Below are positions 22,775 to 24,936 of a DNA stretch of 64,000 nt, in pieces. Position numbers and translations under genes: made by a program. The notes under the pieces were generated by a model. It saw only the letters and a program-made list of their open reading frames with translations, was not told the origin of the DNA and ran no database searches. Each line of letters opens with the position of its first letter. Positions within the stretch are counted from its first letter, which is position 1. Origin of the DNA: a virus; IMG/VR virus record IMGVR_UViG_3300045988_159010; one strand, written 5' to 3'.

Positions 22775-23635
22775 TTATTTTACAGGGGCTGTCAAGGCAA
22801 ATATTTTTTTTACAGATTCAATCCAATATAAAGCTGCTTCTCTATCTACAGTACTTAGATGCACTGTTGTTGTTTTAGTAAAATCATCTGGATCAGGAAT
22901 TTCTAAATCCCAAATTTTAATAGGATTCATTTTATCTTGATCTAACACAATACGTCCTTGATTTAAATTATTTAAATTAATAACAATAGTTTCAAAGGTT
23001 TTATTTAATAACATAGTATATGTCATTTTTCCATTTTCATCTTCATTCCAATTGCTTACAAGACCAGCGACACTATTATCACCAAACTCATTTATATAAT
23101 TTTTATTATTATGTATTTTACTTATTTTTAAATTTTCAAATAACCTAAAAATAATCTTTTTGAGATTATTTATATCATCACTTTCTGCGATACGAGAGAT
23201 ATGTAAATTCTTTTCTAATTCATTTACTTCTTCACTTGTACAGCCGTTGTTACAATGTCCGATACAACCTCCAGAACAAGTTCCTGAACATTGCTCAGCA
23301 CAAGCTGTTGTACAAGTACCAGAGCATCCTCCACTACAAGAGCCTTCACAACTAGAACAAGAATCATCACAGCCGCCACAATATCCAGTGCAACTATCAC
23401 AATCACCAGTACAATCTGTATCACATGTTCGCTTTGGACCACAGTCTACACTGCATTCTCCACAACCTGCTACGCAATCACTACCAGAACAACTAGAGCA
23501 AGCATTCTCTCCCGTATTTATTGCTGTATTATAGCAATCGGATTCACAAGCTCCTCCTGATTGTCCTGGGAGATAATTATCTGTGCCTTCATAGCGACCC
23601 ATTTCTCTACTATCTCGTCCTGAATTACAAGCCAT
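22775..23635 (-). CDS. cysteine-rich protein (about 50 Cys in the N-terminal 130 aa, CxxxC-type repeats) with a C-terminal globular domain
   Basis: 286-aa intact ORF. Locally GC-rich. Its start lies 3 nt downstream of the rSAM-SPASM gene's stop. Confidence 0.5.
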   Translation of the reverse strand: MACNSGRDSREMGRYEGTDNYLPGQSGGACESDCYNTAINTGENACSSCSGSDCVAGCGECSVDCGPKRTCDTDCTGDCDSCTGYCGGCDDSCSSCEGSCSGGCSGTCTTACAEQCSGTCSGGCIGHCNNGCTSEEVNELEKNLHISRIAESDDINNLKKIIFRLFENLKISKIHNNKNYINEFGDNSVAGLVSNWNEDENGKMTYTMLLNKTFETIVINLNNLNQGRIVLDQDKMNPIKIWDLEIPDPDDFTKTTTVHLSTVDREAALYWIESVKKIFALTAPVK

Positions 23636-23637
23636 AA

Positions 23638-24936
23638 TTATTCCTCCTTTATTAAGTAATTATATTCTTCTTGAGTAATAATTTTATTTACAAAATTATA
23701 ATCAAATTTGCCAATTCTATTTAAAGCCTTTTTATCATTTAGTTTTTTATAAAAATATATAGTGGATAAACATTCAGCTTTATGGCATTCACATATTGTC
23801 GTAGTTCTATGACATAAATCTCCTGTCATCTAATAGCTACATCCAGCACACCAAGCACATCCTCTTTCTATTGGACATTCTAAGCATTCTTTAGTAGATA
23901 TATTCTTTTTTGTATAATTTTTAAAAATTTCTAATATCTATTTTTCAGAATTAGTATAACCAATACCATGTTTTATATTGCCAATTATTAAAGGAGGTGC
24001 ATCATTACCTAAAGAACTTTCCATAAAACGGATACAAGTATAAATATCTCCTTTCCAATCTAAAGAAAACATATTAGAAGTAGTTCCACACCATCTTTCT
24101 TCTAATTTTTCTATTTCTAGTGGAGCATAATTATTAGGTTCAAAAGGCCTAAAATAAATATCATCTTGTAAATTATTATTGATAATATAATCAGCTATTT
24201 TCTTTAATTCATTATAATAAGTTTTAATATACTCTTCTTTAGTCCAAACATTCTCAAAAACACAATTGGCATAAATATTATTAAATCCTAATTCAATCAT
24301 GTTTTTTACTCCTTTAAAAATATAAGATAAATTATCTGGACTAAAAGTTATTTTAGTTCCTCCATTACCATTTTTAAGTAAATCTAATCCTGCTTTAACT
24401 GCTAAATCATAGCTGCCTTGACCATTAGGAAATAAACGACATTTATCATGTAATTCTTTACAACCATCAATAGTTACATTTATTGATGCAAATGTTCCGT
24501 ATTTTTTTAAAAATTTCTATACTTTTGGAGTAAAATATAAAACTCCATTAGAACATAAACTAAAGGCATGAAACATTTGCCATGGAGAATCTTTTGGAAT
24601 TTCATTTAATTTATTTTCAAAATATTCACAAATCTAATCAATTAAATCAATTTCTAATAAAGGTTCTCCTCCAATAAAATCTAGAATAAATCCAAATACT
24701 TTTCCTTCATAAAAATATGATCCAGGATTAGTCCGTCCTTCAAATATATAATCAATAAATTTTTTAGCAATTTCAAAAGACATTTTATGATGCCCTTTAT
24801 TTATTTGATAACAATAAGAGCAGCATAAATTACAATCATCAGTTACTTGAAAAGTAATATTTTTCATCATTTTTCCTTCCCAATTTGGGAAAAGAGTATA
24901 AACGTAATCAGCATACTAGTAATTAGGTTCTAACAT
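23638..24936 (-). CDS. radical SAM / SPASM-domain enzyme (anaerobic sulfatase maturase or peptide-modifying type); 3 in-frame TAG
   Basis: N-terminal CNLCCSYC (Cx3Cx2C) and GGEPLL motifs. C-terminal SPASM cluster CLECPIERGCAWCAGC. Track ORFs 24634-24870, 23938-24300 and 23638-23829 are in one frame across TAG. Confidence 0.65.

Follow-up and report, generated by a model that had tools for sequence, protein, structure and literature searches.

A phage that appears to read TAG as a sense codon encodes a CXXX-family radical-SAM/SPASM maturase next to a cysteine-repeat protein, its predicted substrate

Introduction

Radical S-adenosylmethionine (rSAM) maturases with a SPASM domain have hitherto been linked with small antibiotic-like peptides and with the stapling of one enzyme subunit. 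One enzyme/target arrangement of this kind, the CXXX system, has already been defined by NCBIfam curators from genome context. Its curated parts are the rSAM enzyme (TIGR04115), two families of targets (TIGR04114 and TIGR04117), a second, SPASM-only maturase (TIGR04119), and an accessory protein of 90 aa (TIGR04116). In the open-access literature we found no paper on the chemistry or function of the CXXX-repeat family and none that links the family to phages. Here we describe an rSAM/SPASM gene and the neighbouring gene for a cysteine-rich protein in a 64,000-nucleotide stretch of viral DNA (IMG/VR record IMGVR_UViG_3300045988_159010), which is called the window throughout. The pair is a phage variant of this known, biochemically uncharacterised system, and we estimate a probability of roughly 0.6 that it comprises a functional CXXX-family maturase that covalently cross-links the adjacent repeat protein.

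The window pair shares with the curated CXXX system a TIGR04115 enzyme, a repeat with a cysteine at every fourth residue, and the same-strand adjacency of the two genes that is seen in bacterial loci. It differs in that it resides in an apparently TAG-recoded phage and in that the repeat is fused to a lineage-specific domain of 154 aa rather than to a twin-arginine translocation (Tat) signal or a short leader. In addition, no TIGR04119 or TIGR04116 gene was detected in the window, and the target does not match the curated repeat models. QhpD is an rSAM/SPASM enzyme that staples a protein subunit (QhpC), not an antibiotic peptide, with several cysteine thioethers before export. However, QhpC has a few specific links and no lattice, and no dehydrogenase genes lie near the window pair. 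CteB (5WGG), which makes a cysteine thioether, has the same radical-SAM core and seven-cysteine SPASM domain as the window enzyme. The window enzyme lacks the RRE (precursor peptide recognition element; residues 1 to ~93) of CteB, and the SCIFF substrate of CteB has six cysteines in ~45 aa, compared with 26 cysteines in the 286 aa of the window protein. The nearest characterised family by score is that of PapB, the maturase of PapA (freyrasin). In both cases a single rSAM/SPASM enzyme is paired with a periodic Cys-X3 motif, and PapB, which is very tolerant of sequence context, installs many in-line thioethers, making six in-line or nested Cys-X3-Asp/Glu links on one substrate (PMC9413430). PapA, however, is a short, leader-recognised peptide with an Asp/Glu acceptor at i+4, whereas in the window protein the residue at i+4 is the next cysteine, Asp is rare, and the substrate is 286 aa long.

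The module proved to be common in phages, where it is fused to globular domains and usually located between tail-fibre and lysis genes. Its presence in culturable, genetically tractable jumbo phages (SPN3US and Erwinia phages) makes this orphan family directly testable.

Results and discussion

Family membership and catalytic residues of the enzyme

Both genes of the pair lie on the minus strand where the original prediction, made from the sequence of the window, had placed them (Table 1), and the motifs CNLCCSYC and CLECPIERGCAWCAGC that it quoted are present in the pair. With TAG translated as Gln, the protein of the 432-codon frame matched TIGR04115 ("radical SAM peptide maturase, CXXX-repeat target family") at 381.1 bits (E = 6.5e-114), above the curated cut-off of 350 and over positions 2-359 of the 359-position profile, and by this comparison of sequences the enzyme is a member of that family. 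It also matched phrog_1802 (E = 6e-54). TIGR04115 was the only family in the comparison whose cut-off was passed, all others remaining far below their own: PapB (NF047865) scored 175.4 bits against a cut-off of 340, the SCIFF maturase (TIGR03974) 109.5 against 425, QhpD (TIGR03906) 101.7 against 453, and the anaerobic sulfatase maturase (AnSME; TIGR03942) 41.6 against 349.

The three cysteines C35, C39, and C42 and the SAM-binding motif GGEP (aa 89-92) are invariant among recoded and non-recoded homologues. The SPASM cysteines C283, C301, C351, C354, C360, C363, and C382 are likewise invariant and align with those of CteB; these seven residues are expected to bind two auxiliary Fe-S clusters. 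Judged from these residues, the catalytic apparatus of the enzyme is intact. CteB is also the closest solved structure (E = 4e-20), and the alignment begins at CteB residue 94, just as the alignment with the SCIFF-maturase profile begins at position 90. These starting points indicate that the N-terminal, leader-binding RRE domain is absent. In view of this score and domain content, SCIFF, which the original prediction had cited, is not the appropriate comparison.

The original prediction had also offered the alternative that the partner is an ordinary disulfide-rich structural protein and that the enzyme is AnSME-like and acts elsewhere; the SPASM fold is common to anaerobic sulfatase maturases. 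However, the AnSME model is far from matching and no sulfatase was found among the flanking genes (18.8-26.7 kb), two results that speak for the main proposal of the original prediction, and the adjacency of enzyme and target is conserved. Moreover, anaerobes dominate the groups (Clostridia and Bacteroidales) to which the related bacterial loci belong, and with assembly in the cytoplasm disulfides are unlikely. We consider this alternative very improbable.

In-frame TAG codons in the maturase gene

Under the standard bacterial code the rSAM gene is split into three open reading frames (ORFs), because it has in-frame TAGs at aa 7, 101, 140, 333, and 369 (24916-18, 24634-36, 24517-19, 23938-40, and 23830-32). 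Reading through TAG raises the minus-strand coding fraction of the window from ~60% to ~87%. The whole window contains 144 in-frame TAGs, distributed over many genes, and every gene stops at TAA or TGA. In the alignment of rSAM homologues the TAG columns are mostly Gln in those that are not recoded, and the TAG positions shift among related phages while the reading frame and every catalytic residue are kept. Taken together, this pattern of codons indicates that the phage almost certainly reads TAG as a sense codon, most likely for Gln (genetic code 15). The original prediction had read through the five TAGs without mentioning them and so missed the recoding, although the read-through itself was justified.

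Given the three ORFs of the standard code, the rSAM frame might be taken for a decayed pseudogene with five stops, leaving the cysteine-rich ORF on its own. The lack of a suppressor tRNA in the 64-kb window would fit this explanation: none of its four tRNAs (Gly, Tyr, Pro, and Thr, at 41.5-47.3 kb) has the anticodon CUA. However, every interruption is a TAG, and since TAG serves as a sense codon throughout the window, with no gene stopping at it, the gene is not a pseudogene. The conserved frame and catalytic residues at shifting TAG sites and the full-length score above the TIGR04115 cut-off likewise argue against decay, to which we assign a negligible probability. The suppressor tRNA may be encoded elsewhere in the ~189-kb genome.

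The density of TAG in the rSAM gene (1.16 per 100 codons) is close to that of tail-fibre genes (1.3-1.4; for example, 15 TAGs in 37840-41388 and 12 in 58033-60594), whereas replication genes, such as 11369-13750 and 14910-16619, have none. This suggests that the rSAM gene belongs to a late, TAG-rich expression class, as the tail-fibre genes do. The gene for the cysteine-rich protein has no TAG. As it has only four Gln codons, for which the chance of finding no TAG is ~0.24-0.33, this absence is uninformative, and the corresponding gene of relatives carries 2-5 TAGs. The usage of TAG under code 15 has been described for gut phages (bioRxiv 10.1101/2021.08.26.457843; PMC9523058). As in those phages, many genes of the window contain in-frame TAG, tail and late genes are rich in it, and replication genes lack it; a point of difference is that no suppressor tRNA lies in the 64 kb analysed.

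The cysteine lattice of the partner protein

The partner protein contains 26 cysteines, of which 25 fall within residues 1-130, and residues 133-286 contain none. The cysteine-rich string quoted in the original prediction (residues 54-100) is present, but its count of about 50 cysteines in the first 130 residues was too high by a factor of about two. Compared with the window-wide cysteine frequency of 1.9%, 25 cysteines in a stretch of 105 residues is a strong enrichment (binomial P ~1.5e-20), and the next highest count in any protein of the window is 11. Between aa 30 and 132 the spacing follows 16 C-x3-C and five C-x2-C units. A set of 149 units drawn from eight unrelated proteins gave the consensus C-[S/T]-G-[S/G/T]; x1 is Ser/Thr in 66% of them and x2 is Gly in 54%.

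Its family comprises ~45 clusters, and contigs of 185-214 kb carry full-length homologues. Throughout the family every cysteine of the lattice is invariant or almost invariant while the intervening residues differ, and no tandem repeat was found at the DNA level in the lattice, which together point to protein-level selection on the lattice of cysteines. The DNA of the lattice has a GC content of 44%, compared with ~29% for the genome. In a profile comparison, the lattice matched the repeats of a prophage-type protein (locus L008) with an hhalign probability of 97.9%.

The Cys-free C-terminal domain had no match in Pfam, NCBIfam, or PHROG, and an exhaustive HMMER search with it recovered its own lineage only, plus low-complexity noise. 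A profile search of the PDB with the cysteine protein gave no match. Nor did tblastn against GenBank phages, where low-complexity masking hides the repeat and the C-terminal domain is lineage-specific, which explains the null result. AlphaFold2, run with a 36-sequence family alignment, gave a mean predicted local distance difference test score (pLDDT) of 38.9 and drew the lattice as coil; this model was unusable. For the prophage-type homologue P0058, AlphaFold2 predicted a three-helix N-terminal domain with moderate confidence. Foldseek with that model recovered uncharacterised viral homologues only, and the best PDB match, TssK (E ~2), was below significance. It should be noted that several cysteine-repeat proteins, including P0038, P0039, and P0058, bear the precomputed Pfam label PF27846, which may be a newly curated cysteine-repeat family.

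Occurrence of the gene pair in phages and bacteria

For the survey of related loci, loci were fetched through the enzyme alone, and a partner was defined as a same-strand ORF that lies within ~2 kb and has 20 or more repeat cysteines; the genome loci counted were the 80 best. A partner was present in all 12 phage or viral loci and in 68 of the 80 genome loci, a number that rose to 73 under a relaxed threshold. Of the loci left without one, two were incomplete at the relevant flank. The pairing of a SPASM-type rSAM maturase with a cysteine-rich substrate, as originally proposed, is thereby supported by family membership and by adjacency in every viral locus and in at least 73 of the 80 genome loci. 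The remark that a phage with such a pair is unusual did not hold, because phages and prophages carry the module widely, among them prophages of Clostridia and SPN3US-like and Erwinia jumbo phages. We consider it highly probable that the rSAM protein and the cysteine protein are enzyme and substrate.

The targets fell into three classes. Class A targets (Bacteroidales and others) have 80-280 aa and a Tat signal peptide and are encoded upstream of the enzyme. Class B targets (Clostridia) are peptides of 52-88 aa encoded downstream of the enzyme, resembling classical precursors of RiPPs (peptides that are ribosomally synthesised and then modified after translation). Class C comprises the loci whose enzymes are closest to that of the window (39-46% identity), and these are prophage tail modules with the gene order baseplate wedge, tail fibre, a protein with a globular domain and 19-95 cysteine repeats, a small helical protein, rSAM, and holin/endolysin. 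Two loci (L027 and L030) have the gene and domain order of the window, namely the rSAM gene followed by a protein with N-terminal repeats, and the L027 protein has a C-terminal domain homologous to the N-terminal domain of class C (hhalign 94.5%). Within class A, the bacterial locus L002 holds the complete curated system (TIGR04114, TIGR04115, TIGR04119 at 235 bits, and TIGR04116 at 105 bits). The Campylobacter phage CPt10, a more distant phage rSAM match, has no cysteine-repeat ORF, and more distant matches on gut contigs are genuine SCIFF systems (L015 and L017). The pairing is therefore limited to the TIGR04115-like clade and does not extend to every phage rSAM enzyme.

The number of cysteines in the targets ranges from ~8 to 95. 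Prophage-type proteins built on one shared N-terminal domain span 19-95 cysteines (L024 2858-4279, L022 3534-4664, and L025 3607-4614). In these proteins, a junction motif, roughly S-S-x-C-x-x-S-C-T-G-L-C, is conserved at the start of the lattice and may be a docking site for the enzyme. In several of the Bacteroidales proteins with a Tat signal (L047, L049, L062, L065, L072, L076, and L086), a lipobox-like cysteine is followed by acidic residues (for example, LLASCDDDNEE), a sequence feature suggesting that they are surface-exposed lipoproteins.

Dense CxxC and CxxxC motifs with Gly/Ser spacers also resemble metal-binding proteins, and the lattice could be a metal-thiolate or Fe-S-binding domain, similar to metallothionein, in which case the rSAM enzyme would have a minor or cofactor-loading role and no stapling would occur. 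The use of the Tat pathway by the Bacteroidales homologues, typically for the export of cofactor-loaded proteins, and the lack of a predicted fold for the apo sequence are in line with this, Tat export being just as compatible with metal binding. However, metal binding leaves unexplained why the repeat is strictly coupled to an rSAM/SPASM enzyme of the peptide-maturase type in phages, Clostridia, and Bacteroidales, and the nearest characterised relatives of the enzyme all modify cysteine covalently. There was also no match to a metallothionein family, and the range of cysteine numbers is easier to reconcile with a modular covalent repeat than with a defined metal cluster. We regard a metal-binding lattice as unlikely.

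The class B peptides and the naming of the enzyme family as peptide maturases raise another alternative, that the module is a RiPP-type toxin or bacteriocin cassette whose modified cysteine segment is cut out and released at lysis against competitors or the host. That accessory and lysis genes, not tail genes, surround the window module would be compatible with this. On the other hand, in phages the repeat is in every case joined to a conserved globular domain of 50-150 aa. Next to the pair there is no gene for a protease, transporter, or immunity function and no leader-cleavage motif, the enzyme lacks an RRE domain, and the closest homologues lie between tail-fibre and lysis genes. A toxin cassette therefore also seems improbable.

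Cysteine-repeat genes of jumbo phages

Salmonella phage SPN3US and Erwinia phage ChrisDB each have two tandem cysteine-repeat ORFs together with two genes for radical-SAM enzymes. The SPN3US module comes after a gene of 5,184 bp whose length matches that of gp168, which has been described as a "baseplate/tail fiber candidate" (PMC5694885). In the RefSeq record of SPN3US (NC_027402), one of the cysteine-repeat ORFs is unannotated and a wrong frame has been assigned to the other; the cysteine frame is the one conserved between SPN3US and ChrisDB. Because these ORFs are missing or in the wrong frame, virion proteomics against the reference proteomes could not have detected the cysteine proteins.

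The cysteine-repeat ORFs are located at 2094-2486 and 2497-2901 of the SPN3US locus (L013; ~143.4-144.2 kb of NC_027402) and at 1133-1516 of the ChrisDB locus (L003), and the first tandem copy is unannotated in both phages. The annotated SPN3US coding sequence ACQ60_gp100 is an alternative frame of the repeat DNA and is rich in Ala, Val, and Arg. The lattice DNA of the window also gives long spurious ORFs in other frames (23160-23534 on the plus strand and 23224-23505 on the minus strand), the same artefact that misled the annotation of SPN3US.

Proposed modification of the repeat protein

In the mechanism that we propose for the covalent cross-linking of the repeat protein, SAM would be cleaved reductively at the CxxxCxxC cluster to give a 5'-deoxyadenosyl radical, which would take a hydrogen atom from a backbone or side-chain carbon of the substrate. 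Attack by a cysteine thiolate bound at a SPASM auxiliary cluster would then form a C-S (thioether) bond. Thioether chemistry is suggested by the nearest characterised relatives (PapB, the SCIFF maturase/CteB, and QhpD), which make cysteine thioethers, and by this analogy the chance that the cross-link is a thioether seems slightly better than even. Bond formation would be repeated many times along the lattice, and the enzyme most likely serves to make many intramolecular cross-links there, probably thioethers. Since the enzyme has no RRE domain and the substrate no obvious leader, the simplest model is that the repeat unit itself is recognised, which is probably the case. The Ser/Thr at x1 of C-[S/T]-G-x is a candidate acceptor because this conserved residue stands at i-3 and i+5 relative to the flanking cysteines, and NxxC-type and CteB-type enzymes use these offsets.

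The product would be a densely stapled segment, insensitive to redox conditions and resistant to proteases, joined to a globular domain. Made late in infection, it would probably have an extracytoplasmic function, as a component of the virion or one associated with the tail, or else as a factor set free at lysis. Four features would fit an extracytoplasmic product: Tat export in Bacteroidales, the tail-fibre/lysis neighbourhood of the module in prophages and jumbo phages, the variable repeat number, and the late, TAG-rich class. The variable repeat number fits because other fibrous segments of tail proteins vary likewise. A structural or tail-associated role of the cysteine protein can be suggested tentatively. 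More speculative still is a specific version in which the phage enzyme staples the cysteine repeat of a tail-fibre- or baseplate-associated virion protein into a poly-thioether rod of variable length (~20-95 links) that is insensitive to reduction and proteases. If thioethers were indeed made on a virion component, they would add a new class to the post-translational modifications of viral structural proteins, namely RiPP-type maturation applied to a viral structural protein and overlooked because the ORFs were missing or in the wrong frame. Such links would be a natural substitute for disulfides in reducing, anaerobic habitats, and the family would be a source of enzymes that staple long repeat proteins iteratively.

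Several observations weigh against this explanation as a whole. The thioether is derived from sister families, each of which scored under its own cut-off, and we found no biochemical study of any TIGR04115 or TIGR04114 member in the open-access literature. Neither TIGR04119 nor TIGR04116 was detected among the genes next to the pair or among the other rSAM-like genes of the window. The window protein had no match to TIGR04114 or TIGR04117, even at E values up to 10; HMMER composition filters may suppress matches to such a cysteine-repeat sequence, and the target of another locus (L001) did pass TIGR04114 (21.3 bits against a cut-off of 20). For the lattice, the models of both the window protein and P0058 are of low confidence. 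The C-terminal domain of the window protein was not recognised as the globular domain of the cysteine-repeat proteins of prophage tail modules (hhalign probability 0.5%), and in this lineage the neighbours of the module are accessory genes (flotillin, PhoH, and phosphoesterases), not a tail module. Finally, the paper on the SPN3US virion proteome and its supplements do not mention the genes of the module.

Gene order around the module

Between the TAA of the rSAM gene (23638-23640) and the ATG of the cysteine-protein gene (23633-23635) there are 2 nt, and a GGAGG Shine-Dalgarno sequence for the latter lies within the last codons of the former. Judged from this spacing, translational coupling of the two genes is plausible. 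Together with a 77-aa ORF, which may be the third gene of the operon, they appear to form one unit of three tightly packed minus-strand genes (Table 1). A terminator-like hairpin is the likely upstream boundary of this transcription unit; terminator-like sites were scored by consensus match only, and six were found compared with 1.7 expected by chance. The order of the three genes is identical on all recorded 189-kb contigs. Nine human-gut contigs of 188.5-189.5 kb encode a protein identical to the 286-aa cysteine protein, and this length probably represents the whole genome of this human-gut phage.

Table 1 Features of the maturase module in the window.
Feature	Position (nt)	Strand	Remarks
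Radical-SAM/SPASM peptide maturase, 432 aa, five in-frame TAG	23638-24936	-	TIGR04115 member
CxxxCxxC motif (C35, C39, C42), predicted radical-SAM [4Fe-4S] ligands	24811-24834	-	Invariant in homologue alignment
SPASM region, 7 conserved Cys	23791-24090	-	Invariant columns; align with CteB SPASM Cys
CXXX-repeat protein, 286 aa, no in-frame TAG, predicted maturase substrate	22775-23635	-	
Cysteine lattice, aa 30-132, 25 Cys	23240-23548	-	Spacing counts; conserved in protein family
Cys-free C-terminal domain, aa 133-286	22778-23239	-	Lineage-specific; no Pfam/NCBIfam/PHROG match
77-aa ORF, 4 nt between its end and rSAM start codon	24941-25174	-	Conserved in lineage
Intrinsic-terminator-like hairpin, 14-bp stem then T-run	25311-25342	-	Just downstream of flotillin gene

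On the 3' side, the module is followed by a 184-aa ORF, PhoH, a CHAP-amidase endolysin 2.2 kb downstream, and a small membrane protein. The module thus lies near lysis genes, as in class C prophages, yet outside any recognisable tail module. The 77-aa ORF had no family match. A C-terminal motif seen by eye raised the idea that it is a diverged TIGR04116-type accessory, which was rejected (hhalign probability 0.1%), and no relationship to the small helical proteins of the class C loci was detectable either.

Other features of the window

A possible second module of radical-SAM enzymes and a repeat protein lies at 51687-56785 on the minus strand, in a low-GC region (~47.4-57 kb, 20-24% GC). It has three divergent peptide-maturase-like rSAM genes (51687-53057, 53057-54544, and 55004-56785), the last of which is fused to a GT2 glycosyltransferase. 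Their family matches are weak (PapB, YhhB, and HxsC, 23-27 bits), and the module is an orphan. The rSAM genes at 51.7-56.8 kb were considered as a source of the missing TIGR04119 function, and no such match was found. Amid these genes, a 171-aa protein (54511-55026) has a repeat tail rich in Ser, His, Tyr, Asp, and Gly; as a candidate carrier of the globular domain of the prophage cysteine-repeat proteins it was rejected (hhalign probability 0.8%).

Three further genes encode a flotillin/SPFH protein (25341-26720), a protein similar to the major vault protein (MVP), with MVP shoulder and Vault_3 domains (30755-33238), and a DUF2828/DUF7788 protein (33817-35355). They use CAG almost exclusively for Gln (22-28 CAG compared with one CAA), whereas the rest of the genome uses CAA, and they form stretches of 35-37% GC without TAG. 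From this composition they look like recent horizontal acquisitions, and it is already odd that a phage has a vault-protein-like gene. ORFs similar to homing endonucleases (HNH or intron-encoded type, and GIY-YIG-like N-termini) are found at 14024-14713, 26792-27514, and 42875-43633; they are TAG-dense, with 3-7 TAGs each, and scattered between phage genes. Lastly, the gene at 35779-36843 encodes a protein with a signal peptide and S-layer-homology (SLH) domains, which points to a Gram-positive (Bacillota) host with an S-layer.

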